A stretch of DNA of 16,794 nt from Candidatus Omnitrophota bacterium (GCA_043803685.1 JAZDJU010000039.1:1-16794); one strand, 5' to 3'. Positions 2,721 to 16,495 are shown, numbered from the stretch's first letter. Made by a program: numbers and translations. Notes: generated by a model not told the origin, from the sequence alone.

Positions 2721-3032
2721 CTAAAAATGAGCCGCGTTCTGAATTAAATCGAGGATCGCCCTCGAAAGCATGATGAGAGCCCCGCCCCCCGCAGCAAGCG
2801 CTCCCCGGCGCATTCCCTGCTCATCGCCGAGCGCCATGGATACACCGGCGATAGCGACCCCGATCACGCAAACTCCGGGACCGATCGAACGGATCATGAA
2901 ATCCCCGATCTGCTGCAAAAAGGACTGGAGATCCGCCTCAGAACCCGCTTCCGCGTAACAAAGACGGGCCTGAATGAGCAGGAATCCGATCCCCACAAGA
3001 ACACGCCACAGTTTTGAAAATTGCACTTTCAT
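2721..3032 (-). CDS. VirB2/TrbC-family conjugative pilin
   Basis: Start reassigned to ATG 3032 (GGAGGAAACA-ATG). 103 aa, signal-peptide-like N-terminus ending LCYA, then two Gly/Ala-rich hydrophobic helices. First gene of the VirB2-B3-B4 order. Confidence 0.8.
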   Translation of the reverse strand: MKVQFSKLWRVLVGIGFLLIQARLCYAEAGSEADLQSFLQQIGDFMIRSIGPGVCVIGVAIAGVSMALGDEQGMRRGALAAGGGALIMLSRAILDLIQNAAHF

Positions 3033-3124
3033 TGTTTCCTCCGTAGTTGAGGGGAAGGAGGCTCTGGAACCCCTTTGGGAGGCATTACCTCGAGCCTGTT
3101 TTGATGGGTCGGCCTCACTTCCCC

Positions 3125-3202
3125 CTATAGTATTGGGCAATAACAGGGGGGGCTGTTCACAAGTTTTCCACATTTCCCCTTAGGAAAATATTTTTCTAGT
3201 CC
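3125..3202 (-). repeat. 78-bp direct repeat copy 1; putative regulated promoter of the pilin/T4SS operon
   Basis: 71/78 ungapped identity with 16418-16495. On the minus strand it ends in a TACTAT -10-like hexamer with no good -35. Overlaps the last codons of the sigma-4 gene. Confidence 0.9.
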
Positions 3203-3782
3203 GTTCGAGAACATAGTAAACAGCGCTGGGACGCCTTCCAAGAGTCCGCGCAATTTGAGCCACCGTGAGCCCGTTCCGATATCGGAGCCTGAAAATTAGT
3301 TTCTGTTTTTTTGTTAACACTGCTAATTTAGAAGACCGCAGCATTCGCCGGATAGAGTCTTTTTCCGAAACAAACTTCCGCAGTCTCAGATAAATTTCCT
3401 GACGGAAACGGCGGACAGTGATCCGGGAAACGCCAAGACGCGTGGCGATCTCTTTGTCCGAAAGACATTCGACGTAAAAGAGGTCGAAAAAAACTTGTCT
3501 TCTTTCCGTAAGCATTCCTTCCCTCGCAAGACGAACCAATCGGGCATGATTTGCCGTAATTTTCCTGCGACCAGAAATTCGGTTCTCCTTCGCAGCCAGG
3601 TCATTAAAGGAACTAGCCGAACCGGCCAGCTTCTCTCTAACCTCCAGCTCGAAAGGATGGAGGGGATCTTCGGGCTGCGTCCCTTCCACTCGCGAAAAAT
3701 CGGTCTCCCGCACTCTCGTCCTTCGTTTATTGCTAGATCCTGAAACATCCGGTTCTTCATTTTTGGATTTTGAATTTGACAC
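3180..3782 (-). CDS. Transcriptional regulator with two tandem sigma70 region-4 HTH domains
   Basis: LTERRQVFFDLFYVECLSDKEIATRLGVSRITVR and LTKKQKLIFRLRYRNGLTVAQIARTLGRRPSAVY both fit the region-4 pattern. Start more likely GTG 3782 (GGGGA 7 nt upstream) than GTG 3827, which abuts a terminator U-tract. Confidence 0.8.
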   Translation of the reverse strand: MSNSKSKNEEPDVSGSSNKRRTRVRETDFSRVEGTQPEDPLHPFELEVREKLAGSASSFNDLAAKENRISGRRKITANHARLVRLAREGMLTERRQVFFDLFYVECLSDKEIATRLGVSRITVRRFRQEIYLRLRKFVSEKDSIRRMLRSSKLAVLTKKQKLIFRLRYRNGLTVAQIARTLGRRPSAVYYVLERTRKIFS

Positions 3783-3827
3783 TGTTGTGTCCCCGCTTTC
3801 CGCCGTGCGGAACCGGAGTGAGGACAC

Positions 3828-3861
3828 AAAAAAAGCGAGCAGCCCGGAGGGTTACCCGCTT
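3828..3861 (-). terminator. Intrinsic terminator/attenuator at the end of the leader, upstream of the sigma-4 gene
   Basis: Minus strand AGCGGGUA-A-CCC-UCC-GGG-C-UGCUCGCU with G-U pairs, running into a 7-U tract. Confidence 0.7.
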
Positions 3862-3971
3862 GTTGACTACGTAAAAATGCAGAAAAAATTTTTAGGAGAA
3901 GATACTAAGGAAGATAAAAAGAGGGATGGTGATGGAGCCAGCCTGGAAGTGAAAAAGTGATGCTAAAGGAA

Positions 3972-4249
3972 GGGGAACCTCCGCGCTGCCGTATCCGAAC
4001 CCGGAACCACACGGCATAATGGTGGTTCCAGATTACCGGAGATCCTCAAAGGAGCTTACGCAAAGCTCCGCTCTGTGGTTTGTCTGAAACAGTTATGTGA
4101 CGCATCAGGACCTTAAAACGGTCTCGGGCGAACAATTGGGGAAGACTATGCTTCCCGCTCATTCAGGCAGCCAAACCGTGGAAAAGAGACCTCCTTGGGT
4201 TGAGGTCTTCTATTTGCCAACGGCCCGATCCCGAAGGATCCGGCTTTTT
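3972..4249. ncRNA. Candidate structured RNA (multi-stem, pseudoknot); family not recognised, strand uncertain
   Basis: About ten complementary segment pairs in 280 nt with no credible ORF; details in findings. Confidence 0.6.
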
Positions 4250-4308
4250 AAAAATCTCCGTATTCGTGAGCTTGATTCGCTCTTGATCGAACCTGGATAA
4301 GTAACAAA

Positions 4309-4337
4309 ATACTACCCAATACGTCCTATAATGTCAA
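4309..4337 (-). promoter_or_regulatory. Sigma70-type promoter TTGACA-N17-TAGTAT
   Basis: Minus strand TTGACA (4337-4332), 17-nt spacer, TAGTAT (4314-4309), just downstream of the cargo-block terminator and pointing at the structured leader and regulator gene. Confidence 0.8.
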
Positions 4338-4379
4338 GGAGTGAATGGATGACTCAGAAACGCAAAAAAAATTCTGGAA

Positions 4380-4405
4380 CGGCGGGAGAAGTATTTCCCC
4401 CGCCG
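4380..4405 (-). terminator. Hairpin closing the cargo block
   Basis: CGGCGGGGGAA-AUAC-UUCUCCCGCCG 11-bp stem just after the stop at 4414; U-rich tract slightly displaced. Confidence 0.65.
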
Positions 4406-4413
4406 CTTTTCGA

Positions 4414-4728
4414 TCATTTTTTCCAGAATCTGCTCTCCTGAATCAGATATCCGGCAGAACGAAGCATACCGGCCACATCAAATGTCTTAAATCCCCCGCC
4501 GCTGCGAACTGGCACGGAATACTGACCGCTTGACAGGTTGACCGCCGAAGTAAAATCGTTCGCAAACGACATGATTCTGCTCACGACAAGCCAGCCCATA
4601 AATATCAGTGGCAGTAGCCAGAAGGCAAGATTCACAAAAATAATGAATAGTGCCTTCAAGATCGTCACGATACTCCGCTTGAGTCTCGCGAATGCCTTTC
4701 GAATTTGATCCAAAACGAATTCTTTCAT
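4414..4728 (-). CDS. Hypothetical membrane protein (104 aa)
   Basis: GAGGAGGT RBS; basic N-terminus followed by a long hydrophobic segment. Confidence 0.75.
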   Translation of the reverse strand: MKEFVLDQIRKAFARLKRSIVTILKALFIIFVNLAFWLLPLIFMGWLVVSRIMSFANDFTSAVNLSSGQYSVPVRSGGGFKTFDVAGMLRSAGYLIQESRFWKK

Positions 4729-4799
4729 GGTTACCTCCTCACATTTTTATTTCTCCGGACCGAATCACATGACCGCCAATTCCTTGTTGATAACGCGTT

Positions 4800-5012
4800 C
4801 TACAATTCCGTCACTTCATGGACCGATGACGGATAGAAAACAATTTTATTTTTTTCAACGCCGATGCTGATTCTTGAATCATCAAGCAACGGGCTGAAGC
4901 TGTTCCCTTCTTCATCCGAAGAAAGCCACACTTCAAATTCTTTTTTGATTGTCCCTTGTTTGCATAATGCGCCAAGGACTTGGACAAGACCCACCACGCT
5001 AAGTGTTTTCAT
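4800..5012 (-). CDS. Hypothetical protein (70 aa)
   Basis: AAAAAGGAGG RBS, co-oriented with neighbours, globular-looking sequence (VWLSSDEEGNSFSPL). Confidence 0.75.
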   Translation of the reverse strand: MKTLSVVGLVQVLGALCKQGTIKKEFEVWLSSDEEGNSFSPLLDDSRISIGVEKNKIVFYPSSVHEVTEL

Positions 5013-5030
5013 TGAATCTTCCTCCTTTTT

Positions 5031-5071
5031 AAAAATGCGAAAGACAGGAGATATTCTTCCCGCCCCTCGCA
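5031..5071 (-). terminator. Terminator-like hairpin abutting the next RBS
   Basis: UGCGAGGGGCGGGA/UCCUGUCUUUCGCA 14-bp stem with four G-U pairs, then UUUUU, then AAAAAGGAGG. Confidence 0.7.
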
Positions 5072-5093
5072 GTGATTTGATTTATAGAATTTC

Positions 5094-6179
5094 TTATTTC
5101 TCCTGAGGTAGCTTCACCACTTTCCCGAACGATCCCGAAAAAGCGCCGTCCGGAGTAAGACACCAGAGCGTCGAGCATCTCGATCGTTCCGGATAATCGC
5201 CATATCCGTCGGTGAGATAGACCAGAGCGTCAGGCCGGAGCTTTTCGGCAAGGTCAAAGATGGGCTTAAAGCTCGTTCCCCCTCGTCCCGATACGGCTTT
5301 GGGCCGGGATTTGTAGCGATAGACATTGCCGACTTTCGCGTCGCATTCCGCCACCGTGATCTCCATGCCGAGGGCCTTGATCTTTTCAATCTCCGCGAAG
5401 AAAAGAGAGAGATCCCGGTCACTGACGCTGCCGCTCGTATCAAGCCCGACCAATAGCTTGAGTTTTTGCTCGATCCTCTGGCCGGGAAATTCCTCAAACC
5501 TCCGGTTCGGTCGTTTTCTTGAGAAAACCGAGCGCACGAGTGTCGCCCGGATCAGGAACCTTTCGAGAATGCTCTTCCAGTTGACGCCCGGACCTTTCAG
5601 GAATTCCTTCAGCTGTTCGCGCATGTCCCCGGGAAGAGAACCGTAATCCTGCGTCTCATCAAGCGAGATTTTGACGGCTCTTCTCAGGAACTCCTGCTGA
5701 TACTGCGGATCTTCTACCGGGTCCCCCCAAAGGCTATGATCGTCAAGCATAGAGCCATCTGCTTTCGCGATCTTGGCCTGAAGTTTTTCAGTGTTCTCGA
5801 TGAGCTTCTTGTAATACCACTCCGCTGTTTGCCCATCTTCAAACCCGAAAAGCTTTGGCATCAGAGCTATTCTCGGAAGATTTCTGATGAATGTGTTGAT
5901 GGCAAGATCACAGGCGATATTAAAAATCCCGTGATTCTTTCCATCTCCTCGAAAGAGATGAAGGTGCAACAAATGAAGCACCTCATGCTCGAGACACGCG
6001 ACACGCTCGTCAAACTTGAGACCTTCCAGGAATTTCGGATTGAAATAGAGATTGATACGCCCCGTGATATTCACTCCCAGAGTCGGAACCTTCTCCGTCT
6101 CGATCCTGTTCATTTGCTGAACGAAATGCGCGTAAAACGGCTTGGTTTGCACAAGTGATACGACCATTTCCTCAATCAT
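5094..6179 (-). CDS. HExxH metallopeptidase-like + VWA domain protein (DUF2201-type), MoxR partner
   Basis: LEHEVLHLL motif, FNIACDLAIN, DDHSLW, MIDAS elements DTSGS / GGTSF / YLTDG. Start reassigned to ATG 6179 (AAAGGAGG RBS, overlapping the end of the upstream gene). Confidence 0.88.
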   Translation of the reverse strand: MIEEMVVSLVQTKPFYAHFVQQMNRIETEKVPTLGVNITGRINLYFNPKFLEGLKFDERVACLEHEVLHLLHLHLFRGDGKNHGIFNIACDLAINTFIRNLPRIALMPKLFGFEDGQTAEWYYKKLIENTEKLQAKIAKADGSMLDDHSLWGDPVEDPQYQQEFLRRAVKISLDETQDYGSLPGDMREQLKEFLKGPGVNWKSILERFLIRATLVRSVFSRKRPNRRFEEFPGQRIEQKLKLLVGLDTSGSVSDRDLSLFFAEIEKIKALGMEITVAECDAKVGNVYRYKSRPKAVSGRGGTSFKPIFDLAEKLRPDALVYLTDGYGDYPERSRCSTLWCLTPDGAFSGSFGKVVKLPQEK

Positions 6180-6555
6180 GATGTCTCCCTCCTTTGGCAT
6201 CAAAGAAGACCGTTGTATCTTTGATGACCTGTTCATAAGTTATAAACATGACCTTCCCTTTGCTGATCTCAAGAGCCCAGTTATCGTCCCGCTCTTCGCC
6301 GCTGGCATTGATCCATCCCGTCGCGCTTTTGGGAAACGCCCGGACGATCGCCATCACGAACCTCTGGAATTCCTCGTGGTAGTTTTTCCAGTTGGCAAAG
6401 ATTTCGAGATGGTATCCGTCCTTGTTCTTTTCAACGCGGCTCTCATTGGAAAAGTCCGGGAAGCGCCTGCGCAGGATATTTTCGAGGCGTTTTCCTTCCT
6501 TCCCGGAGAGACCCGGAAGATCGATGCTCCCTGTGAAATCCGTGTAGTACCCCAT
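6172..6555 (-). CDS. Hypothetical protein (127 aa) between MoxR and VWA genes
   Basis: GGGGAGG RBS; 3' end overlaps the VWA gene start. Confidence 0.8.
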   Translation of the reverse strand: MGYYTDFTGSIDLPGLSGKEGKRLENILRRRFPDFSNESRVEKNKDGYHLEIFANWKNYHEEFQRFVMAIVRAFPKSATGWINASGEERDDNWALEISKGKVMFITYEQVIKDTTVFFDAKGGRHHD

Positions 6556-6587
6556 GGTTAGAACCTCCCCGTAACGGGTTTAGACGG

Positions 6588-6620
6588 AAAAAAAGCGGGG
6601 AAAACCGAAGTTCTCCCCGC
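6588..6620 (-). terminator. Intrinsic terminator with cUUCGg tetraloop
   Basis: GCGGGGAGAAC-UUCG-GUUUUCCCCGC-UUUUUUU. Confidence 0.85.
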
Positions 6621-6643
6621 CTTTATCCCTGTGAGATGTACGT

Positions 6644-7690
6644 TTAAACCGCGCGTGCCGCTTGAGCGAGCTTCTCCGTGAATTTTTCCTCTTTGCGCAG
6701 AAAAGCGCTCACCTCCGGGATCTTCACCAGTTCCTTCACGAGCGCGAACGCGAGATCCACCGGAAGATCATCCAGAAAATCCACGAGGTTCGATTTCTGC
6801 TGGTTGCTTAACGCTTTCGTTTTTTCTTCTTTCGCCAGAATCCTCAAGATCTCGTCTCCGGTGATTCTCAGAAGATCAAGCCGGGCCTTTTTCCCGCTTG
6901 AATGTTTTTTGACGCGGGCTTTAACCTTCCCGTAATCCGAAAGGATCTCCTCCGCTTTGATGGGGACCTCCTGATCTTTTTTCAGGCTTTCGATGAACGC
7001 GATAGCGGCCTCCTTGCCGACGAGGCCCATGGCGCATTGCAGCCAAAGCCGGTCTTCAAGACCGTTCAACATTCTTGAAAGCATCTCCCAGGATCTCGGC
7101 GAGGGCAGCACTTCGAGGGGGAGATCGTTTGACGGGTTTCCGAGCAGATGATGGTAACGCGCGATCAAATCCAGAATCTCCTCCCGGATCTTTCCCGTAT
7201 CCTTTCCCCATCCGATCCACTCGTTCGGCTCCGGACGGAACTGAATGTGAAGAAACCGGTCGAGCAACGCCGGATCAAGCTCGTTTACGAAATAATCGCT
7301 CCCGGACGGGTTCGAGGCGCATACGACCCTCCAGCCTTCCGGAAGATGATGGGTGTGCAATTTTTTCTCCAACACGAGCTGAAAGATCGCCTGAAGCACA
7401 TCAAGACGCGCACGGTTCAACTCATCGAGAAAGAGTATCCCGACACTTCCTTCCTTGGGAAACCAGGACGGCTTGAGCCATACGGTTCTTCCGTCTTCTT
7501 TGGAAGGAAGCCCGATCAAATCCCCGACTTCCATCTGCCCCAGCCGCAGATCCACGCATTCGTACTTCATTTCCTCCGCAAGAGTCTGCACGATCTGGCT
7601 TTTTCCGATCCCATGCTGGCCCCAGACGAGCGGCGTTACATTCGCTTTGAAACATTGTTGAAGCACTTTGACTAAATCGACGGTATTCAT
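6644..7690 (-). CDS. MoxR/dynein-related AAA+ ATPase (AAA_5-like)
   Basis: Walker A WGQHGIGKS, Walker B ILFLDELNRA, sensor-1 ASNP, arginine finger LDPALLDRF, SPRSW motif. Confidence 0.92.
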   Translation of the reverse strand: MNTVDLVKVLQQCFKANVTPLVWGQHGIGKSQIVQTLAEEMKYECVDLRLGQMEVGDLIGLPSKEDGRTVWLKPSWFPKEGSVGILFLDELNRARLDVLQAIFQLVLEKKLHTHHLPEGWRVVCASNPSGSDYFVNELDPALLDRFLHIQFRPEPNEWIGWGKDTGKIREEILDLIARYHHLLGNPSNDLPLEVLPSPRSWEMLSRMLNGLEDRLWLQCAMGLVGKEAAIAFIESLKKDQEVPIKAEEILSDYGKVKARVKKHSSGKKARLDLLRITGDEILRILAKEEKTKALSNQQKSNLVDFLDDLPVDLAFALVKELVKIPEVSAFLRKEEKFTEKLAQAARAV

Positions 7691-7749
7691 GGACGGTTCT
7701 CTCCCTTGGTTTTTGGTTACGGTTTTGGAATTAAAAGCGGGTGGCAGGA

Positions 7750-8811
7750 CTAACGGTTGAAGAAGTAATAGATCTCGTTGAAGGAAGTAAAAGTCTCGGC
7801 GCGGAAAAAACGGTATAGCCCGTGCACGCGATGCGTGACTTTTATTCCTTCCGGTCTAAGCGAAATCCACAGCAGAGGAACGTGGAAACGGGAGTCCGCG
7901 TAATACCACGCGAGGGCCGCGATTTTCTCGCGGTTCGCTTTAGGTATCACGTGGGGCGTTACCTGACGTTCAACGATATTCCTCGCGATCTTTGTTTTGC
8001 TGTAGGAGTTAAAAGGCTTCAGAATCTCATAGTGTGTTTTGCTTAACGGCTGTGAAACCCTCCATTCCGATTCCTGAACATAACTCCGGGGCTTGCACAT
8101 CAATTTGCCGCCCCCGTAGGCAAGCATATTCAAATATTCATCGATACTTCCGTACCGTCTTCGGATATTCCCAAGACATCGTTTGACCATCTCTTCCTTA
8201 GTCACCATACAATGCTCCTCGATTTCCCGGCTCCTGAGGTAGCACGTCCCTTGATAAATACAACGGGAACAGTATTTTTCGATCTTCTCCTCCTGATATT
8301 GCGGCAAATGCCGTGCAATACGCCGGGTTTTTTTGTTTCGTTTTATGACTTTGGGATCAAACACGATTTGAGTGAAAGTCGGCTTGAAAAATGCCGTATC
8401 CGGGTTCAGATCCACCGGCCGAAGCTTCTCCCATCCATCCAGGTCAATATCAAATCCGTTCAATTCATCGACCGGCTGGAAAGAACAGCCTGTGGGTTTA
8501 ATATCCTTATTCATGCAGTTCCCCGTAATGCCGCTCAATCGGTCTTTACAAAAATCACAAAACTTTGAGCGTTTCTTCTGGCCATTGATGAGGATGTAAG
8601 GTTTGTTTTTATCGCTCTGATAACCCCACACCGAAGAATAATCGTCCCGCCCTCCATTCTCCACTTGCTGCCCTTGAAGTTCTTTTAACGGGATAACACA
8701 CGGCTTCTTATCAATGATCTTCACAGTACACGACTCAGGTTTTAAGGATCTGAGATTTGCGCTGTCCGGGAAAACATAAGTCTTGTCGATCTTGGTATAG
8801 ACTTTTTTCAT
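7750..8811 (-). CDS. Cys-rich hypothetical protein, paralogue A
   Basis: 353 aa, AAAGGAG RBS; CDFC and CSRC motifs shared with 8838-9944. Confidence 0.85.
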   Translation of the reverse strand: MKKVYTKIDKTYVFPDSANLRSLKPESCTVKIIDKKPCVIPLKELQGQQVENGGRDDYSSVWGYQSDKNKPYILINGQKKRSKFCDFCKDRLSGITGNCMNKDIKPTGCSFQPVDELNGFDIDLDGWEKLRPVDLNPDTAFFKPTFTQIVFDPKVIKRNKKTRRIARHLPQYQEEKIEKYCSRCIYQGTCYLRSREIEEHCMVTKEEMVKRCLGNIRRRYGSIDEYLNMLAYGGGKLMCKPRSYVQESEWRVSQPLSKTHYEILKPFNSYSKTKIARNIVERQVTPHVIPKANREKIAALAWYYADSRFHVPLLWISLRPEGIKVTHRVHGLYRFFRAETFTSFNEIYYFFNR

Positions 8812-8837
8812 GCTTCTCTCCTTTGTCTGAATATGAG

Positions 8838-9944
8838 TTAACGATCGAAGCTGGAAACGTCATTGAACGATTCCATTCGCTTTTCCATGGGCCGTGGTGC
8901 CCCCCAGCCATACGGGAAATAACTGACCTCAATTCCGCTCGGGATGGCAGTAACGGACAAGGTTCGAATGGTCCGTCCACGGTAACCCCGATAAGCCTCC
9001 TGATCTCCGGCGCAGTATTTCTCCAAAAAATACCAGGCCAGTACCGCTATTTTTTCACGGTCCATCAATGGCAATGCTTCAGGTGCCGCATTTTTTTCTA
9101 CCCTCTTTCTTGAAATAATGGCCGTCTTCCAAGGCCGCAACCGTTTACGGATCAGGAATTTATTCCGCCCCACCGGTTTTGTGATGAGCCACCGGCTTTT
9201 CCGTTTTCCACCTTTAGGACGGCAAGTGATCTCTTTCCCGCTGTAGGCCAACCGGCTCAAGAACCCGTCAACGCCGCCGAACATTTTCTGAATGCCTTGC
9301 ATACAGCCTTTTTGAGTTTCCTCGTCGGTCACCATGCATCGCTCCACGATCCTGGCGCTATTCATACGGCAGCGGCCGTTAAGGACGCAGCGGGAGCAAT
9401 ATTTTCCCTCCTTTTTCTTAAGCTGGTTCCAGAAATCATTTCGAACGGCAACGACCCTTTTGTTCCGGTTAATCAGCGTTGTATCAAGGCTGATATAGCC
9501 CGCGCTCCAGGGCTTTTTGAAGGGAGAGTATTTATTAACCCGGGACGGCTTAAGATACCGCCACCCGCCCAGGGAAACATTGAATCTTCCAAGCGGTTTT
9601 GAGGGACTGAAGGAACACCCGCCTCGTTTGATACTGTGATTGAAGCAATTCCCCGTGATTCCGTTTAAACGGTCCTTGCAGAAATCACAAAACTTTCCGT
9701 TCTTCCGTTCGCCGTTAATGATGAGAAACTTTTCGCATTTCTTATCATCGAAACCAAAAACTGGCTCAGAAAATCCGGAGTTGTTGTAGCCCTCGACTCT
9801 TTTCTCGTTCAAACTGTCAAGCGGGCATACGTAAACCTGCCCGCTTTTTCTTGCGACTGCGCAGGAATCAAGCTTAAGATCCGTAAGATCTCCGATGTCT
9901 GAAAGCACATGGACACTTTCTAGTTTCGTATAGATTTTCTTCAT
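8838..9944 (-). CDS. Cys-rich hypothetical protein, paralogue B
   Basis: 368 aa, GAGGAGG RBS; colinear similarity to 7750-8811. Confidence 0.85.
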   Translation of the reverse strand: MKKIYTKLESVHVLSDIGDLTDLKLDSCAVARKSGQVYVCPLDSLNEKRVEGYNNSGFSEPVFGFDDKKCEKFLIINGERKNGKFCDFCKDRLNGITGNCFNHSIKRGGCSFSPSKPLGRFNVSLGGWRYLKPSRVNKYSPFKKPWSAGYISLDTTLINRNKRVVAVRNDFWNQLKKKEGKYCSRCVLNGRCRMNSARIVERCMVTDEETQKGCMQGIQKMFGGVDGFLSRLAYSGKEITCRPKGGKRKSRWLITKPVGRNKFLIRKRLRPWKTAIISRKRVEKNAAPEALPLMDREKIAVLAWYFLEKYCAGDQEAYRGYRGRTIRTLSVTAIPSGIEVSYFPYGWGAPRPMEKRMESFNDVSSFDR

Positions 9945-9977
9945 GGAATTGCCTCCTCTTTTGGATGGGGTTCAAGA

Positions 9978-10478
9978 TTATTTTTCTTTGGCGTAGCGAA
10001 TCCCTTCAACAAAATATTGATTGAGACGGTCTCGCATCCGGTAAAAAAGGTCCGCCATCTCCTTCTGCAGTTCGGCAACGCTTGACCATACAAAGTTCCA
10101 GGCCTTCGCGTCATATTCGCAGAGCACGACGTTTTGAAATAAAACGACGACGGTCGTGACATCTTCGTAGGAAGGATCAATGGAGATTGAAACGGCGGGA
10201 TAGCTGATTTGCTTTTTCGCTAAATACTCAGCCTGGACTTTGTCCCGGATGACGCTGAAAAATCCGTAGAATTTGGACTTAACGGCGTAAAGAAGCTCTT
10301 CACCGATGAACTCATCCGGAACACAGCCCTCCTGAGGATCGAGATAGAGTTTCTTAACAAGGAGATCCCCCTCATCCTCCTTTTTCGAATCAAAGAGCCC
10401 TTGGTGATATTCGAGAAGCGTTTTCTTCAAACCTTCGAAAAGCTCTAATTGAAGTGTTTCGCGTTTCGGGTATTCCAT
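9978..10478 (-). CDS. Hypothetical protein (166 aa)
   Basis: AAGGAG RBS, co-oriented, no recognised motif. Confidence 0.78.
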   Translation of the reverse strand: MEYPKRETLQLELFEGLKKTLLEYHQGLFDSKKEDEGDLLVKKLYLDPQEGCVPDEFIGEELLYAVKSKFYGFFSVIRDKVQAEYLAKKQISYPAVSISIDPSYEDVTTVVVLFQNVVLCEYDAKAWNFVWSSVAELQKEMADLFYRMRDRLNQYFVEGIRYAKEK

Positions 10479-10492
10479 GGAATTTTCTCCTT

Positions 10493-10522
10493 AAGGCAGA
10501 GGTGCGGGAACACCCCTGCCTT
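10493..10522 (-). promoter_or_regulatory. 12-bp hairpin abutting RBS (no U-tract)
   Basis: AAGGCAGGGGUG-UUCCCG-CACCUCUGCCUU immediately followed by AAGGAG. Confidence 0.6.
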
Positions 10523-10572
10523 TGATTTGAGTTCGTAACTTTGTGAGCGAGTTTTTGAGGCGGGGGTGTACG

Positions 10573-11046
10573 TCAGACCAGAACCGATTCGACGAGGGGT
10601 CCCTTTATTTTCCCGGCTGTTTCTTTCCGCTTTCGGATCCGTTTGTACCCGCAGGAATCCAAGGGCGCGCAATTCCGGGTAAGTCTCCCGAGATAATTGA
10701 CACAATGCGTACACCGGACCTCGAGCTTTGCCCTTCGCTCCTCTGCCTTTTCTTTCTCGCGGCGCTTGTGATGATCCAGCAGCTCGAATTCCTCGAAAAC
10801 ATCCCCGCGAGTTTTGCAATCCGTCACATTCAAATTCACCGTGTAACCCCCATTGAAATTGATCCGGCCGACGTTCCGACCCTGGCAAAAATGAAGCAAC
10901 AGCTCCTGGCCGTTCTCGTGATCTTTGTAGATAGAACCCCCGATAAACCACTGATCCCGGTAACCACTGATAGAGCCAACCTGGCGACCGGCATTCTGAC
11001 TGTTTAAATCATTCACTGTTTCCAGTAATTCTTCTCTCGAAAGCAT
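10573..11046 (-). CDS. Hypothetical protein (157 aa) with a C-terminal four-Cys cluster
   Basis: AAAAGGGGGT RBS; RCTHCVNY...RNCAPLDSCGY. Confidence 0.75.
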   Translation of the reverse strand: MLSREELLETVNDLNSQNAGRQVGSISGYRDQWFIGGSIYKDHENGQELLLHFCQGRNVGRINFNGGYTVNLNVTDCKTRGDVFEEFELLDHHKRREKEKAEERRAKLEVRCTHCVNYLGRLTRNCAPLDSCGYKRIRKRKETAGKIKGPLVESVLV

Positions 11047-11070
11047 CGCAACACCCCCTTTTCTGGCGGT

Positions 11071-11112
11071 AAAAAGGGGCGGTATCCCTATGCAGGGACA
11101 CCACCCCTTTTT
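11071..11112 (-). terminator. Terminator-like hairpin upstream of the 157-aa gene
   Basis: AAAAAGGGGUGGUGUCCCU-GCAU-AGGGAUACCGCCCCUUUUU with G-U pairs on the minus strand. Confidence 0.75.
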
Positions 11113-11137
11113 CCTTTTTCAGATTACTAAAAGCGAA

Positions 11138-11308
11138 CTATCTTTTCTTCTCCCATGAACCTCGCTGGGTCAAAAGCTCATGCATGGCCTCCAGAATTTC
11201 CAGAGCCCTTCCGTAGCCAAACCTGCTTCGCCAGCAGATCTCTTTTTCTAGAGCACGGTGCATATTGAGAAGCTTTTTGTGACATTTTTTTGTCAAAGTT
11301 TTACGCAT
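11138..11308 (-). CDS. Small hypothetical protein (56 aa; not in ORF track)
   Basis: GGGAGG RBS; MRKTLTKKCHKKLLNMHRALEKEICWRSRFGYGRALEILEAMHELLTQRGSWEKKR; fills the gap and overlaps the upstream small ORF. Confidence 0.6.
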   Translation of the reverse strand: MRKTLTKKCHKKLLNMHRALEKEICWRSRFGYGRALEILEAMHELLTQRGSWEKKR

Positions 11309-11466
11309 AGATCCCTCCCTGAAATCAGCGCTTCCCGTTTCCGTTCAAGACGCAGAAGTTCGTTTTCCTCTTCAGCCATCAGGCATTCTTCTCCACTAGC
11401 GACAATACGCTCACGCAGATTCTGGATCCGCGCGGAAAGACCTCTCATGCATTCAATGCGTGTCAT
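11293..11466 (-). CDS. Small coiled-coil-like protein (57 aa)
   Basis: AAAGGAG RBS right after the radC stop; MTRIECMRGLSARIQNLRERIVASGEE... is the C-terminal part of the 150-aa track ORF. Confidence 0.65.
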   Translation of the reverse strand: MTRIECMRGLSARIQNLRERIVASGEECLMAEEENELLRLERKREALISGRDLCVKL

Positions 11467-11482
11467 CTTGCGATCTCCTTTT

Positions 11483-12145
11483 CTAAAGTTGGCTGCGCTC
11501 CGAGAAACTGAAATACTGGTTCTCCCCGATGATGATGTGGTCGAGAACCCTGATCGAGACCGTCTGGCAGGCGGCCTTGATCTTCTGCGTGATCTCGTAA
11601 TCCTCGCGGCTGGGTTCGACCTTTCCGGAGGGATGGTTGTGCACGAGGGCAATACTTGAAGCGGAAAACTCCAAAGCAGCGCGCACAATTTCACGAGGAT
11701 GCACCGCAGCTTCGTCGATCGTTCCGAAGAAAAGGTCCCGCTCACCGATAATGCGGAGCCCCTTATCGAGGAATATCACCTTAAAGACCTCGCGCTTCAG
11801 GTCCCGGAGACTGGCCGAGAGGTAATCCGTGACTGCTTGGGGACTGCGAACGAAGTTCTGACCGATCATTCCCTGTCTTAAGACTCGTTTTCCGATCTCA
11901 CGGACCGCCTGAAGTTCAGCCCATTGAGATTCACTCAGATCCTTCAGATCAAAGACCTGGCGAAGCCCTCCGGCCCTGCTCAAAAGATCCATCGCAACAC
12001 CGACTTCCGTTTGCTCATACGTGGCCCTCTTAAGGATCAGAGACAGAAGCTCCGCATCAGAAAGCGCCTCGATCCCTTTCTCCTTCGCCCTTACCGCAGG
12101 CCGCTCGGTCTCCGGCCAATCCCGGACCGATAATTTTCTTCTCAT
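11483..12145 (-). CDS. radC: RadC-family JAB/MPN domain protein
   Basis: WPETERP...LSDAELL N-terminus, GTIDEAAVHPREI, HNHPSG-x3-PS-x2-D JAMM motif, VLDHIIIG. Confidence 0.95.
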   Translation of the reverse strand: MRRKLSVRDWPETERPAVRAKEKGIEALSDAELLSLILKRATYEQTEVGVAMDLLSRAGGLRQVFDLKDLSESQWAELQAVREIGKRVLRQGMIGQNFVRSPQAVTDYLSASLRDLKREVFKVIFLDKGLRIIGERDLFFGTIDEAAVHPREIVRAALEFSASSIALVHNHPSGKVEPSREDYEITQKIKAACQTVSIRVLDHIIIGENQYFSFSERSQL

Positions 12146-12168
12146 GGTGGGACCCCCCTTTTAGACGC

Positions 12169-12210
12169 AAAAAGAGGCGGACTCCCTTTAACGGGAATAC
12201 CACCTCTCTT
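12169..12210 (-). terminator. Terminator-like hairpin upstream of radC
   Basis: AGAGGUGG(U)AUUCCC-GUUAAA-GGGAGUCCGCCUCU-UUUU. Confidence 0.72.
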
Positions 12211-12239
12211 GCGTGTTTGATGTATTTGTTACTTTCGTT

Positions 12240-12332
12240 TCAGCGAACCACGATCTCCCAGCCGTTTCTTTGAAACCTCCCGATCAAACCAGCGTGTTTT
12301 TCGAGATCACTTTTTCGAACGATCAACCTCAT
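12240..12332 (-). CDS. Small protein (30 aa; not in ORF track)
   Basis: Full AAAGGAGGTGA Shine-Dalgarno, ATG at 12332; MRLIVRKSDLEKHAGLIGRFQRNGWEIVVR. Confidence 0.65.
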   Translation of the reverse strand: MRLIVRKSDLEKHAGLIGRFQRNGWEIVVR

Positions 12333-12349
12333 GACATTCACCTCCTTTC

Positions 12350-12387
12350 AAAAAATAGGGGGACGGCACCGGAAAGCACCGTCCCCC
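12350..12387 (-). terminator. Terminator-like hairpin abutting the RBS of the 30-aa ORF
   Basis: GGGGGACGGUGC-UUUCCG-GUGCCGUCCCCC-UAUUUUUU-GAAAGGAGG. Confidence 0.78.
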
Positions 12388-12415
12388 GTTTGGTTTTTTA
12401 AACCGCACTGCCCGT

Positions 12416-12916
12416 CTAGGCTGCGCGCGCGGCGTGAGAGGGCATGAGCCCTAAGATCACGTCTTCAAGCGCGGACTCCGGGATCGAAACTCCCTTTCTT
12501 TTGGACGGGAAATACGAGCCGTCCTTGGAATAGAACCGCCGGATATCCACGAAGGTGGCCTTTCGCCCGCATCCTTTGGAGATCCGGAAGATCTCGGTTC
12601 CCGAAACCGGAATATCGCAGACCGTGACGCTTGCGACACTCACCCCCTCGGGTCTTACGGCCTGAGGAACGGTCCGGGCCTTGATGAGCCCCGCGATGAT
12701 AGGTTCACGGAATTTCTCCGCGAAACACACGCCCTTCGAGCTCGGCACGAGTTTGCTCTTGTCATCCTTGGCCCTGAAAAAGATCCTCAGGTCCAGATAA
12801 CGGTTCCCTTTGTAGTCCTTTTGCGAGATCCGGTAGATGTCATTCTCGGATCTCGGAACATCCGCGAGGACCACGATTTCTTGTTTCACGTCTTGAACTG
12901 CATTTTGAGTTTCCAT
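12416..12916 (-). CDS. Tandem PC4 (p15/YdbC-like) ssDNA-binding domain protein
   Basis: Two repeats: YKGNRYLDLRIFF...PSSKGVCF and RKATFVDIRRFY...PSKRKGVSI, matching the PC4 DIR.f/y...P.kKG motif. Confidence 0.85.
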   Translation of the reverse strand: METQNAVQDVKQEIVVLADVPRSENDIYRISQKDYKGNRYLDLRIFFRAKDDKSKLVPSSKGVCFAEKFREPIIAGLIKARTVPQAVRPEGVSVASVTVCDIPVSGTEIFRISKGCGRKATFVDIRRFYSKDGSYFPSKRKGVSIPESALEDVILGLMPSHAARAA

Positions 12917-13011
12917 GTGGCTTTCTCCTTTTTGATTTTGAAATGAACTTCGTTAAAAACTCCTTTTCTTTCTGTCCGTCTAATCACCTCCTTTTTGAAC
13001 CTCTTGAAAAT

Positions 13012-13051
13012 AAAAAAGGGAAGGCGCGGGACAATGCCCCGGACCTTCCCT
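13012..13051 (-). terminator. Intrinsic terminator after the coupling-protein gene
   Basis: AGGGAAGGU-C-CGGGGC-AUU-GUCCCG-C-GCCUUCCCU followed by UUUUUAUUUU. Confidence 0.75.
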
Positions 13052-13076
13052 AATGGCTTAAAATTCCTAATTCTGC

Positions 13077-15062
13077 TTACGGTTGTTTAACGCCTGTTTT
13101 CTCCTCCTGAATTATTTTGACCCATTCAGAGGGACTCTTCTTCGGGGCCTCCTCTTTAGCTGCCGGAGGTGTTTTGGTCTCACGACTAGCCGACACGGCA
13201 GGTTTTAAAGTTTTTTCTATGGGCTTCGCCGCCTGTGCGTCTTTGGGAGGTTCTTCTTTGTTTGCGGGCTGAGCAAACGGGTGCTGGGCCCTAAAATCAC
13301 CCACGAACGACGGGTACCCGAAGAAATCCAGTTTCACGTGCCCCGTGTAAAGCTCCGGACTCTTCAAGATCAAAACCGCTTCCCCCCTTTGAAGCCCACG
13401 GATCAGGTCCGGCTCAATGCGGAATTCCTGACCCTCACGGATCGAACCGACCCCGGTAAAATCCTTGCCGGTGAATTTCTGCTCCGTCTGATAGGTGGAG
13501 ATCAACGTCTTCTTCGTCCCTCCGATCTTCGTGAGTTTCTCCACGGAATCGGGGTCATCCTGGCGCAGGATGATCTTGATATTGGTGTTTTCGATCACCT
13601 GCTGCTGGAACGATGCATCGCGGCGCACGACGAGATCCCCGAGAGATTGGTGGAGCAGCATGATCCCGAACCCTGCGGCGCGGGCCTTGTTCAGAAAATC
13701 GATGAAATTTATGTCAAGAAAGCTGGAGGCGTCGTCCACGAACACGGGAAAAAAATGACGCTCGTTAGTCAACATCTCAGACTGGATATAACCCGAAACG
13801 GTCCTGATATCTTGCAGAATCATCCGTCCCATGCGCTTTGCCGTTTCCCCGTACCCCTGCAAATTGAGCTGGAAGTAAACGATCTTATTCCCCTTGTAAA
13901 TCTTAAGGAGATCGATCTCCGGCGTCGCTATATCCACAAGCTTTGAGAATTCGCTGCGGGACGTAAGATAAAGGTCCGCGATAAGCCCGGACAGAAACTT
14001 ATGGTTTTGATCGAACCGACTAAGCATCTTCCCGAGATCTCCTTTAATCTCGAGATCTGCGGTCGCGTTAGCGAGTTCTTGTAACGCGCTAAAATCCGTC
14101 AGATACCGGTAAACCTCACTAAAAAGGATCGTCGGAGGCTCACTTGAGCCTTTCTCGCAAGGGCGCTGTCTCAGGGCCTTTAAAAGCGTAAGCGTGGCCT
14201 GTTCTGCCATCTTCCGGTAGAATTCCTCGTTCCAGATCATGCTTCCGATGATCTTGTCCTTTAGTTCCGTGGCGTTTCCCCTTAGAAGCGGGTTGTAGGA
14301 GTTCGAGTTATCAGGTTTTGCGAGTGAGAAAAAGTAAAAGTCCTTCAACCGACCCGCCCTAACAACAATGGAATGGATCCGGTCCAGAAGCTCGCGGTCG
14401 CCTTTCCCATCGATCACGATCGCCCCGCGCCCATTTCTGATGTCATGAGCCAGGAGCGGAAGCAGCACGGACTCGCTTTTTCCGGTCCCGGTCGAGCCCA
14501 CAACCTGAGCGTGCATCGAGCGTTGATCGGACGTGAGATAGACCGCTCCCCCGCCGCTCAAACTCTCCCCGAGATAGGACCGCGACTTGTCAGAACGCAG
14601 GCGGTTTCTTCGCATCACGAGAAGCTCAGGCTCCCGCTTTTTGCCGGCGTCTTTTAAAAATCGTTCCTTCTCAGCGGACGAAAAATACGCCGCCGGAATA
14701 AAGAAAGGCATCAGAGCCGCCAGATAAAAGAGGTAATAGAGCGCCCCTTTTAAAAGGATCCACCGCCCTGAAAGCGACCTTCGGAGTTCCGGAATGTTTC
14801 CCGCCCGGTGGTGCGTCCACACCCAAACCACGGGCGCTGTTATCAAGATCACCGCGCCCAGGATCAGACAAACGATTTTCCAGCGCGGAAAACCCTTCAC
14901 CTTCTCAAAATGCTTCTTACCAGACTCCCAAACGCTTTTACCCGCGCGAGAACTTCTCAACTTGAGCAAAAGACCCGCGACTGTGAGCGGGACATTAATC
15001 AATATCCCGGTAACGATTCGCACCAGAAGCGACTGTCTTGAGTCCCCCTCAGGCTTTCCCAT
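13077..15062 (-). CDS. virD4: Type IV coupling protein (VirD4/TraD family)
   Basis: N-terminal TM segments, Walker A VVGSTGTGKS, IVIDGKGD, SYNPL, NKARAAG...HQSLGDL, NTNIKIILRQ, low-complexity C-terminal tail; adjacent to the relaxase. Confidence 0.92.
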   Translation of the reverse strand: MGKPEGDSRQSLLVRIVTGILINVPLTVAGLLLKLRSSRAGKSVWESGKKHFEKVKGFPRWKIVCLILGAVILITAPVVWVWTHHRAGNIPELRRSLSGRWILLKGALYYLFYLAALMPFFIPAAYFSSAEKERFLKDAGKKREPELLVMRRNRLRSDKSRSYLGESLSGGGAVYLTSDQRSMHAQVVGSTGTGKSESVLLPLLAHDIRNGRGAIVIDGKGDRELLDRIHSIVVRAGRLKDFYFFSLAKPDNSNSYNPLLRGNATELKDKIIGSMIWNEEFYRKMAEQATLTLLKALRQRPCEKGSSEPPTILFSEVYRYLTDFSALQELANATADLEIKGDLGKMLSRFDQNHKFLSGLIADLYLTSRSEFSKLVDIATPEIDLLKIYKGNKIVYFQLNLQGYGETAKRMGRMILQDIRTVSGYIQSEMLTNERHFFPVFVDDASSFLDINFIDFLNKARAAGFGIMLLHQSLGDLVVRRDASFQQQVIENTNIKIILRQDDPDSVEKLTKIGGTKKTLISTYQTEQKFTGKDFTGVGSIREGQEFRIEPDLIRGLQRGEAVLILKSPELYTGHVKLDFFGYPSFVGDFRAQHPFAQPANKEEPPKDAQAAKPIEKTLKPAVSASRETKTPPAAKEEAPKKSPSEWVKIIQEEKTGVKQP

Positions 15063-15068
15063 GAAACG

Positions 15069-15833
15069 TCATAGGATCTGGGAAAACATGAAGGTGTCCG
15101 CTTTGTTCTTGAAGACGGCCTTATCACCCCCCTTGAAAAGAGTCTTATACTCCACAAACCAGATCTTCTCAGGATCGTATTCAAGATCAATGACCCAATC
15201 CATGATCTCGGTATTCAGGATCATGAAAACGCGGCTGTATTCCTTCGATCCCTGGTAGTTCTTGAAAAGCGCCTCATAACGCTTCCGCCCCTTCGTCGAA
15301 TTCTCCAGCTCGATCGCGATCTTCTCCGAGTACACCGTTAAAAGCCCGTCCGGAACGTGGAGGTAGTAATTATCCCGCCTTCTCAAAACGCGCTCACTCG
15401 TCCATCCGGCAAGCCCGTGCTTCCGGAAAAAGATGCGAAGATTCGTGACTTTTAAATCATGATCCATGTTCGCCCGGTGATAACCGTTCAGCTTGAAAAG
15501 GGACATGCTGTTATGCAATCCTCGCCGCAAAAGCTCGCAGTATCCTTTCTCCCTCAAACGATACACCGAAAGTTTTTTCTTCACGCCGGTCTCTTTAGCC
15601 AAATATCCCGCCGCGACCAGCTTATCAATCCGGTGATGACACGCTCCGGCTTCTTCCGAACAGCTCGCCCAAAACGCGGACTTGAGATGACTATGCGCCA
15701 GATACCCCTGCTCGTGCATGAACTTGAACATCTCAATGTCCCTTGCCTGAAGTTCCACAGGTTCCGAACCCCCAACCCGTTCCGTCGCCTTTCCCTCTTC
15801 TGTTTCGTTCCTCGCAATATCTTCCATGCTCAT
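15069..15833 (-). CDS. Replication-relaxation (Replic_Relax)/MOBC-type relaxase
   Basis: N-terminal wHTH-like LQARDIEMFKFMHEQGYL, HDL motif, and PDGLL-x-IAIELENSTKGRKRY fitting the MOBC D-xn-ExE-x3-K-x3-RY signature. Start likely ATG 15833 or 15827, not 16262. Confidence 0.82.
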   Translation of the reverse strand: MSMEDIARNETEEGKATERVGGSEPVELQARDIEMFKFMHEQGYLAHSHLKSAFWASCSEEAGACHHRIDKLVAAGYLAKETGVKKKLSVYRLREKGYCELLRRGLHNSMSLFKLNGYHRANMDHDLKVTNLRIFFRKHGLAGWTSERVLRRRDNYYLHVPDGLLTVYSEKIAIELENSTKGRKRYEALFKNYQGSKEYSRVFMILNTEIMDWVIDLEYDPEKIWFVEYKTLFKGGDKAVFKNKADTFMFSQIL

Positions 15834-15928
15834 CCATCCCTTCAAAGTTCCTTCCGGGAAATACCGTCCGAAGGAGCATGATCCCGCTACACACAGGACC
15901 ATCACCCCTTCAGACGCCGGAAGACCCG

Positions 15929-16345
15929 TTACCGTCCGAAACGCGCAAGTGTCCTGGCAAACGACTCCAGTTCGTTCACCAGATACCCCGACTCCCTGAG
16001 CGTATCCCGGGTATTTTTCGGACTGTAGGCTTCCGGAATAACCGCAGGCCGGTAAACACGACCCGAAACTTGACCGACAACTGCCTGTCTCACGTTCACA
16101 TTGCCCCGCGAGAACGACGGCACGGCCGCTTCGGACTGCTTCACAACCACTGGCTTTACCAAAGAAGCTTTCAGATACCCTGCGCCCTGATTCAGAAAAG
16201 AAAGAGTGGTGAACGCAAGAAAAAGCATCACGCCAAGACTCAATCCCTTTCTGATCCAGCACGCAAACTCAAAAAACATTCCCTTCAAAACACTACCAAA
16301 CGACTTCCCACAACCGCGAGGCTCACTCGTGTCAATCAGCTTCAT
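15929..16345 (-). CDS. Hypothetical single-pass membrane protein (138 aa)
   Basis: GGAG RBS, one hydrophobic segment (LSLGVMLFLAFTTLSFL), first gene after repeat copy 2. Confidence 0.7.
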   Translation of the reverse strand: MKLIDTSEPRGCGKSFGSVLKGMFFEFACWIRKGLSLGVMLFLAFTTLSFLNQGAGYLKASLVKPVVVKQSEAAVPSFSRGNVNVRQAVVGQVSGRVYRPAVIPEAYSPKNTRDTLRESGYLVNELESFARTLARFGR

Positions 16346-16417: not shown

Positions 16418-16495
16418 CTATAGTATTGGGCAAAAACAGGGGGGTCTGTTCATCACTTTTCCACATTTCCCCATAGTAAAATATTTTTCTAGTCC
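16418..16495 (-). repeat. 78-bp direct repeat copy 2; putative regulated promoter of the relaxase/T4CP operon
   Basis: 71/78 identity with 3125-3202, same orientation, 72 nt upstream of the ATG at 16345. Confidence 0.9.

Follow-up and report, generated by a model that had tools for sequence, protein, structure and literature searches.

Predicted intrinsic terminators divide the accessory gene block of a conjugative element family from Candidatus Omnitrophota

The accessory genes of a conjugative element from Candidatus Omnitrophota are separated by strong hairpins that, as judged from their sequences, are genuine and selected intrinsic terminators on the sense RNA and would terminate transcription in vivo. 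The stretch analyzed (JAZDJU010000039.1, 16,794 bases; hereafter the window) is the complete contig C39 of a 2.89-Mb, 133-contig metagenome-assembled genome (MAG). All long open reading frames (ORFs) of the window lie on its minus strand, and the conjugative element was recognized by Pfam searches with their products. Tentatively, and again from sequence, the hairpins are taken to hold the accessory genes off or damped, with full expression requiring a regulated read-through state; this is the reading preferred here, at somewhat less than even confidence.

Seven hairpins had been placed on the minus strand between 5031 and 13051 by an earlier inspection of the sequence alone (the sequence-only reading), which gave U-tracts to six of them and noted that their G-U pairs favored the minus-strand RNA. 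All seven were found there (H1 to H7, Table 1), with folding energies of −22 to −36.5 kcal/mol, and the minus-sense RNA was the more stable in 7/7, by 3.5 to 12.8 kcal/mol over its complement. Each forms the GC-rich stem-loop of an intrinsic (Rho-independent) terminator. A T-run lies directly 3' of the stem in six; the exception is H7 (10493-10522), already described as U-less, in which only TT precedes the Shine–Dalgarno (SD) sequence. Two hairpins of the same kind, H8 and H9, lie outside the range 5031-13051. H8 probably marks the end of the transcription unit, and at its site relatives carry strong canonical terminators of about −25 to −30.5 kcal/mol. Read from the gene map and the sequence, a hairpin is present at 9/16 gene junctions between the stop codon of the coupling-protein gene and the start codon of a gene for a protein with two sigma-70 region-4 units (the sigma-4 gene).

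The hairpins had also been said to abut SD sequences and to leave no room for a promoter before the ribosome-binding site. The second statement was confirmed (see the family layout below). The first was correct for six of the window hairpins, in which a start codon follows 18-37 nt past the stem, but at H1 no usable start codon goes with the adjoining SD, and the start of the PC4-like gene, which has an SD of its own, is at 12916, about 100 nt past the stem. A GGAGGTG-type motif occupies the position of this orphan SD in related H1 junctions. The orphan sequence AAAGGAGGTGA could act as a ribosome-binding mRNA stabilizer or as a standby site.

Table 1. Features of the window, listed in the direction of transcription from H1 onwards, with D1 copy 2 last. 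Terminators, leader and promoter are predictions. Energies are given for the minus-sense and the plus-sense RNA of the segment named.
Feature	Coordinates	Strand	Segment folded; minus-sense / plus-sense (kcal/mol)	Description
H1	13007..13051 (stem-loop 13051-13017)	(−)	13012-13051; −26.3 / −22.8	Terminator hairpin and U-tract 3' of coupling-protein gene
Orphan SD	12985..12998	(−)		Extended SD-like sequence AAAGGAGGTGA, ~20 nt past H1, no usable start codon
PC4-like gene	12416..12916	(−)		Two-domain protein of single-stranded DNA (ssDNA)-binding type, 166 aa; Pfam PF02229, E 1e-14
H2	12349..12387 (hairpin 12387-12358)	(−)	12350-12387; −26.7 / −19.6	Terminator and U-tract, adjoins SD of 30-aa gene
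s31	12240..12332	(−)		30-aa microprotein gene, flanked by H2 and H3
H3	12165..12217 (core 12207-12173)	(−)	12169-12210; −32.8 / −23.3	Bulged terminator hairpin and U-tract immediately 5' of RadC
RadC gene	11483..12145	(−)		JAB domain; Pfam PF04002, E 3.6e-45
H4	11071..11112	(−)	11071-11112; −36.5 / −28.7	Terminator hairpin with A-tract and U-tract, 5' of 157-aa gene; folds on plus strand too
Cargo genes	5094..11046	(−)		157 aa, 166 aa, paralogous Cys-rich 368 and 353 aa, MoxR AAA_5 ATPase, 127 aa, DUF2201
H7	10493..10522	(−)	10493-10522; −22.6 / −16.9	U-tract-less hairpin 5' of 166-aa gene
H5	6588..6623	(−)	6588-6620; −23.9 / −15.8	Terminator and U-tract between MoxR-type ATPase gene and 127-aa gene
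H6	5031..5071	(−)	5031-5071; −22.0 / −9.2	Terminator and U-tract 3' of DUF2201 gene, adjoins SD of 70-aa gene
H8	4364..4405 (hairpin 4405-4380)	(−)		3' of last cargo gene (104 aa, membrane); T-run 8 nt downstream
Promoter	4309..4337	(−)		Sigma-70 type, TTGACA-17-TAGTAT, 10/12 matches; heads sigma-4 leader
Leader RNA	3783..4303	(−)		Structured, ~520 nt; ends in terminator H9 and SD-masking hairpin
H9	3861-3833	(−)		Hairpin and T-run just 5' of sigma-4 gene
Sigma-4 gene	3180..3782	(−)		Tandem sigma-4-type helix-turn-helix (HTH) protein, ~200 aa from GTG 3782; Pfam Sigma70_r4_2 twice, no sigma-2 domain
D1 copy 1	3125..3202	(−)		78-nt repeat over sigma-4 gene end, upstream of pilin gene
D1 copy 2	16418..16495	(−)		Same repeat upstream of first gene of relaxase/coupling-protein operon

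Terminators were counted with an energy-based scan, in which a T-rich tail was required, the 48 nt upstream of it were folded, and a single 3'-terminal hairpin had to result; the statistics rest on this home-made finder, on crude ORF logic and on related sequences. On the minus strand of the whole window the scan gave six T-tract hairpins of −20 kcal/mol or better, all intergenic and all within the accessory block, against a mean of 0.083 and a maximum of 2 in 60 dinucleotide shuffles of 5000-13100. A looser pattern scan of both strands returned 35 sites (22.7 ± 4.6 expected). Genome-wide, 384 T-tract hairpins of −18 kcal/mol or better were counted (0.067 per kb per strand), a set that includes chance hairpins inside genes. 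They were divided between the six contigs with sibling elements (52.3 kb, 37 strong hairpins, 0.71 per kb) and the remaining genome (2.83 Mb, 347 hairpins, 0.12 per kb). An SD, a start codon and an ORF of 28 or more codons within 45 nt of the hairpin were found for 17 and 30 of these, respectively (odds ratio 9.0, Fisher p 5e-8, which is overstated because the copies are related). The density of terminator hairpins is not a habit of the host.

The products of the window ORFs include, by Pfam, a relaxase of the MobC/Replic_Relax type, a type IV coupling protein, a two-domain PC4-like protein, RadC, a MoxR-type AAA_5 ATPase, a DUF2201 metallopeptidase/VWA protein, the protein with two sigma-70 region-4 units, a TrbC/VirB2 pilin and the VirB4 ATPase. 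The backbone runs from a small membrane protein through relaxase, coupling protein, PC4-like protein, s31, RadC and small ORFs to the variable cargo, and from there through a 104-aa membrane protein, the leader and the sigma-4 protein to pilin and VirB4; this order is repeated in relatives, which were mapped by tblastn with the window proteins as queries. The related loci (numbered with L) comprise 14 from Candidatus Omnitrophota MAGs and one labelled Desulfobacterales, and the same assembly holds at least five more copies or fragments (C113, C73, C23, C35 and C77). In C113 the proteins are 84-91% identical to those of the window, and about 1.1 kb replaces the 6.9-kb cargo segment 11344-4416. 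The coupling-protein family was detected in 41/401 sampled Omnitrophota genomes (E 1e-40 or better). Since some of these matches sit on contigs of 200-600 kb, the element family is probably integrative. No description of it was found in the literature on Omnitrophota conjugative elements, on terminators of accessory genes in integrative conjugative elements or on the radC RNA motif, as covered outside subscription journals.

The same scan was applied to the 13 elements in which a coupling-protein gene and a sigma-4 gene are both present, two duplicate or short loci having been dropped. From the coupling-protein stop to the sigma-4 start (98.1 kb) there were 90 strong hairpins (0.92 per kb), 56 of them abutting an SD and start codon. 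The relaxase and coupling-protein genes (63.9 kb) had 8 (0.125 per kb) and the region from the sigma-4 gene to the end of VirB4 (35.9 kb) had 4 (0.11 per kb), with one abutting an SD and start codon in each; this contrast between block and flanks comes in part from the larger genes, hence fewer junctions, of the flanks. Strong hairpins are a family-wide trait and are confined to the accessory block. Across the family the upstream stop codon lies a median of 25 nt before the stem (interquartile range, IQR, 20-37.5) and the start codon a median of 26 nt past it (IQR 23-30). In 88 distinct hairpins T is found at post-stem positions 0-3 in 82-91%, and the flanks are A-rich on the approach to the stem and have the U-tract and then a purine-rich SD zone after it; no further position-specific or −10-like signal is seen. 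Stems have a median of 14 paired bases (at least 14 in 61/88); the median of 15 for host hairpins is an uninformative comparison, as the energy cut-off picks long stems in both sets.

The hairpins are kept among relatives in position and in terminator shape. Consensus folds were obtained for H1 (17 related sequences, 15 predicted pairs, 5 with compensatory change), H2 (13 sequences, 11 pairs, 3 compensatory) and H3 (13 sequences, 20 pairs, 2 compensatory), and exchanges of G-U for G-C are common in all three. The lower stems of H1 (GGGAAGG/CCTTCCC, nearly invariant across the family) and of H3 are almost invariant, beyond what a terminator requires; the whole of H3 is nearly invariant and within the assembly is confined to sibling elements. 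The same cargo module as in the window is present in L009, L023, L024 and L030. L024 and L030, with 64-89% protein identity in the cargo, keep homologous hairpins. L009 keeps a hairpin and U-tract of unrelated stem sequence at three common junctions, namely before the 157-aa gene, after MoxR and after DUF2201. Position and terminator shape thus persist even where the stem sequence has been wholly replaced, and selection, as read from these alignments, acts on terminator shape. At the H5 junction a hairpin is present in 4/5 independent elements that have the junction (it is missing in L023), and H6 has counterparts in L009, L024 and L030. The homologue of H7 in L024 and L030 has the stem GGGCAGGG...CCCTGCC followed by T-rich tails; by this sequence comparison the U-less H7 is a derivative of a U-tract terminator still present there.

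No promoter had been found in the block by the sequence-only reading, and none emerged from a promoter scan, whose sole site on the minus strand was that at 4337-4309, at the head of the sigma-4 leader. Relatives keep a TTGAC(A/G) −35 box and a TA-type −10 box at that position, and a chromosomal radC gene on contig C61 has TTGACA-17-TATGAT upstream and no hairpin; promoters of the sigma-70 type are recognizable in this host and element when present. For the 90 family hairpins, sites were counted in which the −10 box ended between 12 nt before and 40 nt past the end of the stem. Five sites with 8 or more of 12 matches were observed (7.2 expected from local density), two with 9 or more (1.0 expected) and none with 10 or more (0.1 expected), that is, no excess of sigma-70-like sites at hairpins. 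A look-up of public RNA runs for 4300-13300 listed none.

In the mechanism favored here, the terminators would split the accessory, establishment-type block into short units, each consisting of a stop codon, about 25 nt, a long GC stem, a U-tract, a strong SD and a start codon. The units are without recognizable promoters of their own, and transcription would therefore have to enter from upstream, probably from the operon head that the repeat D1 marks in front of the relaxase genes. The default state of the block would be silence or steep damping. The distal genes would be fully expressed only in a conditional read-through state of RNA polymerase, produced through antitermination by some device, and we infer that this read-through would be regulated rather than merely leaky.

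Promoter-loaded antiterminators include the lambdoid Q proteins, with their binding element, and AlpA of Pseudomonas. In principle the candidates in the window are alike, with a DNA-binding protein (the sigma-4 protein) and a conserved DNA element at both operon heads (D1). In this variant D1 would load the sigma-4 protein onto RNA polymerase, which would then ignore the long-stem terminators of the block, and the synthesis of the protein would itself be gated by a switch in its leader of about 500 nt; it is regarded as improbable in this specific form. The sigma-4 protein has no likeness to Q or AlpA in sequence or fold and gave structural matches only to sigma-4-type units. In a still weaker variant, ribosomes on purine-rich, SD-like 5' arms would hold the hairpins open and couple read-through to translation. 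Support for SD mimicry is mixed: SD-type 4-mers are enriched in the 5' arms (49/88 family hairpins, which are related to one another, vs 101/347 in the host), but SD-type 5-mers are not (12/88 vs 31/347, p 0.23).

Family hairpins between the coupling-protein and sigma-4 genes have purine-rich 5' arms (0.72) and pyrimidine-rich 3' arms (0.28), the values for other strong host hairpins being 0.54 and 0.46. By this bias the terminators would be one-directional and their 5' arms SD-like.

In a structure model of the sigma-4 protein a disordered stretch (residues 1-37) precedes one long helix and two HTH units. Against PDB no whole-protein match was found to E 0.001, and the weaker matches were sigma-4-type units. 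The protein is presumably similar to Orf7 of Tn916. The minimum free energy (MFE) of its leader is −177.7 kcal/mol (z −4.0 vs 100 shuffles). In the MFE fold the conserved segment 3989-3978 pairs with 3850-3839, that is, with the loop and 3' arm of H9, and so competes with the terminator. The pairing blocks vary together, being GGAGG/CCTCC in the window and GGAGAG/CTCTCC in L004, and the leader is plausibly, on the basis of these models, a terminator/antiterminator switch; it had no match in Rfam. The two D1 copies form a 78-nt direct repeat of 91% identity, with two copies only per element, and relatives have an equivalent at both operon heads, with conserved blocks that include the palindrome AAAATATTTT. 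D1 may serve the tandem sigma-4 protein as a promoter/operator or as a loading site.

Downstream of D1 copy 1, the probable pilin start is the ATG at 3032-3030, after GGAGGAAACA, and the 150-aa pilin ORF from 3173 probably reaches too far upstream. Between D1 copy 1 and this start (3030-3125) a long-range stem GGGGGAAG...CTTCCCC can form; relatives have a different sequence at this position and the same pairing pattern (GGGGGGTGC...GCACACCCCC).

Several results weigh against a regulated read-through. The sequence-only reading had offered a need for processive antitermination as one option; the searches turned up neither a factor nor an RNA of any known antitermination system, and the long stems would be hard to bypass. 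A cmscan of the whole window against Rfam gave 0 matches at E up to 1. The ConAn1 domain (PF17362, pXO2-34) was not found in the genome at E up to 0.1, in a search that was weak, the control being silent in 14/14 control genomes, and was absent from the Pfam matches of 34 window and locus proteins (E up to 0.01). One NusG-family gene and no paralogue was found in the genome, which is 91% complete. The ops consensus, with one mismatch allowed, matched at chance level (2 matches vs 2.27 expected). The relaxase-operon leader was considered as a put- or canT-like RNA, and only a 5-bp conserved hairpin was found in it. The first gene of that operon was rejected as an antitermination factor, as its product is a small membrane protein with a clear membrane helix. 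The sole large structured RNA found (3783-4303), which is the switch candidate, lies downstream of the block, whereas conAn2 is a structured RNA of 260-600 nt immediately past conAn1, for which no model exists. By a published stem-length rule, considered below, the family stems would belong to the conAn-resistant class. L023 has the same cargo genes without a hairpin after MoxR or DUF2201; the hairpins are therefore dispensable for the working of those genes, and are gained and lost. Finally, the minimal, cargo-less relatives L025 and L026 consist of relaxase and coupling protein, then a terminator at the H1 junction, then pilin and VirB4. Because a terminator stands there without cargo, the relaxase operon seems to have ended at H1 ancestrally, and the accessory block, by this sequence comparison, to have been inserted behind it.

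The main rival, less probable than regulated read-through and yet to be taken seriously, is that the hairpins are leaky attenuators or insulators that work without a dedicated factor, each stopping part of the polymerases. They would set a fixed and steeply falling gradient from the PC4-like gene through s31 and RadC to the cargo and would shield the genes from spurious and read-in transcription. They would also stabilize mRNA 3' ends after cleavage of the RNase E type, with the U-tract as a single-stranded landing zone before the SD. The failure to find any antitermination component (Rfam, ConAn1, NusG, ops, operon leader) speaks for this, as does the loss of hairpins (L023) or of a U-tract (10493-10522, compared with L024/L030) without loss of genes. 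The host has an enzyme of the RNase E/G type, no RNase Y match and a weak, partial RNase J-type match below the family cut-off, and decay by cleavage in AU-rich spacers with 3'-hairpin protection fits a host with an RNase E/G-type enzyme. Set against this are the number and strength of the stops: six hairpins with U-tracts and one without, each of −22 kcal/mol or stronger, stand between the operon head and the last cargo genes, and even moderate efficiencies, multiplied, would leave very little expression of these genes, which are well conserved (64-89% protein identity to L024/L030).

Next in rank, and rather unlikely, is that each unit has an unseen promoter of its own, used by the sigma-4 protein or by an alternative sigma factor of the host and either overlapping the hairpin or situated within the gene before it; in that case there would be many small transcription units, and the hairpins would be the ordinary terminators at the ends of their genes. 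Terminators with long stems and perfect U-tracts do look like real stops, H1 is the operon end in the minimal relatives, the s31 unit shifts position together with its hairpins, and the element encodes a DNA-binding protein of the sigma-4 type. However, the stop and start codons leave no free room around the stem, the 88 flanks hold no position-specific signal besides U-tract and SD, sigma-70-like sites are not in excess, and D1 has just its two copies per element. A promoter upstream of the hairpin would still have to read through it.

Roles at the DNA level, as recombination or cassette sites, as single-strand initiation or promoter hairpins on the transferred strand, or as dispersed palindromic repeats, are very improbable: cargo modules differ among relatives at hairpin-bearing junctions, and conservation of the lower stems in H1 and H3 exceeds what a terminator requires, but the G-U pairs that favor the sense strand in 7/7 become A-C mismatches on the complement. 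The nine hairpins each match only themselves and orthologous sites in sibling elements, with no significant mutual likeness. Dispersed repeats (of the repetitive extragenic palindrome or miniature inverted-repeat transposable element kind) were rejected, since no many-copy pattern was found in the genome and the hairpins are unlike one another. Sites with the attC core GTTRRRY numbered 9 against 25.4 expected, none of them flanking a hairpin, and no integrase-type domain was present among the window and locus proteins scanned with Pfam. Promoters of the F type on ssDNA hold a −35/−10 pair in the hairpin stem, for which stems of 13-19 bp are too short. The suggestion that the hairpins are cassette boundaries was partly upheld: s31 moves with its flanking hairpins, and cargo modules are exchanged between hairpin-bearing junctions among relatives. 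The other part failed, as homology to C113 and L001 breaks off within or next to genes just as frequently as at stems, L023 is without hairpins at common junctions, and there is no attC-type core.

Of the known systems, pLS20 is the closest in layout. Its operon of >30 kb is described as having more than 20 predicted intrinsic terminators that are bypassed by conAn (PMC10325885, PMC8191782), the conAn RNA and protein being encoded at the start of the operon (PMC8191782, PMC10325885). Both are conjugative and have a co-directional gene array with a similar density of intrinsic terminators (>20 in >30 kb as published, vs about 0.9 per kb here), and in both a long leader with an attenuator precedes a regulatory first gene. 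pLS20 is from Firmicutes, and in the Omnitrophota element no ConAn1 domain or large operon-head RNA was found; its terminators are confined to the accessory block, whereas those described for pLS20 are spread through the transfer genes. In B. subtilis conAn fails to bypass a terminator whose stem has 15 bp, the resistant class being stems of >14 bp (PMC10325885), by which the Omnitrophota stems are long enough to resist; the rule comes from a single system in a single host. Two reasons have been put forward for terminator-studded designs, namely that spurious transcription is suppressed and that genes can be expressed differentially, with antitermination genes near the operon start (PMC8955417), and the establishment genes of the pLS20 family are reported to be variable and under separate regulatory sequences (PMC8708921).

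In Tn916 a terminator is described as an insulator, with the cis-acting canT for processive read-through (PMC11658703). The resemblance lies in an integrative conjugative element whose terminators insulate genes, in a processive device that expression needs in Tn916 and would need here, and in the encoding of a sigma-region-4-like regulator; the source gives three terminators (T1-T3), unlike the seven to nine in 9 kb here. Set beside the published accounts of both elements, the Omnitrophota family, as far as its sequences tell, has the logic of pLS20 and Tn916 but none of their parts. Phage morons and integron cassettes likewise hold small accessory genes in series, each delimited by a hairpin, in modules that vary among relatives. 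Morons, however, have their own promoter, and none was seen in the Omnitrophota units; integron cassettes have a conserved attC core and an integron integrase, neither of which was found. The radC RNA motif (RF01754), proposed as an analogue by the sequence-only reading, resembles H3 as a conserved structured element directly upstream of a mobile-element radC. The analogy was not supported by cmscan against Rfam, since H3, a single bulged terminator hairpin, gave no match at E up to 1.

Among the accessory genes, s31 (MRLIVRK...GWEIVVR) keeps its frame and stop codon in 16 distinct related sequences, with 3-9 synonymous codon changes per pair relative to the window copy. A hairpin stands on either side of it in every case, and its place in L009 and L003 is after RadC instead of before. 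By eye its product presumably resembles the N-terminal half of HicA-type proteins. At the cargo site other relatives have, in place of the module of the window, an amidoligase and a class-II glutamine amidotransferase (GATase) as a pair. No family was assigned to the cargo proteins by PADLOC or NCBIfam, and the paralogous Cys-rich proteins (368 and 353 aa; 7750-9944) had no Pfam, NCBIfam, PHROG or PADLOC family. The Cys-rich pair travels with the MoxR ATPase and DUF2201, which also match phage families. At the head of the relaxase operon, the first gene is a 138-aa ORF with a membrane helix (15929-16345), kept in 11 relatives, which overlaps in another frame the first third of a 397-aa "relaxase" ORF (15069-16262). 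The true relaxase start is probably internal, giving about 258 aa, as the sequences of most relatives suggest.

Gram-positive conjugative elements pair internal terminators with dedicated antitermination and thereby keep costly genes silent until transfer. The same layout is found here in elements of an uncultured, small-celled phylum, with the terminators clustered among the variable accessory genes and no known antitermination part found. A regulated read-through would require a device not described so far. If read-through is not regulated, the family would show how terminators alone set the expression of newly acquired genes. Either answer would help to predict when such elements express their establishment or anti-defence cargo.

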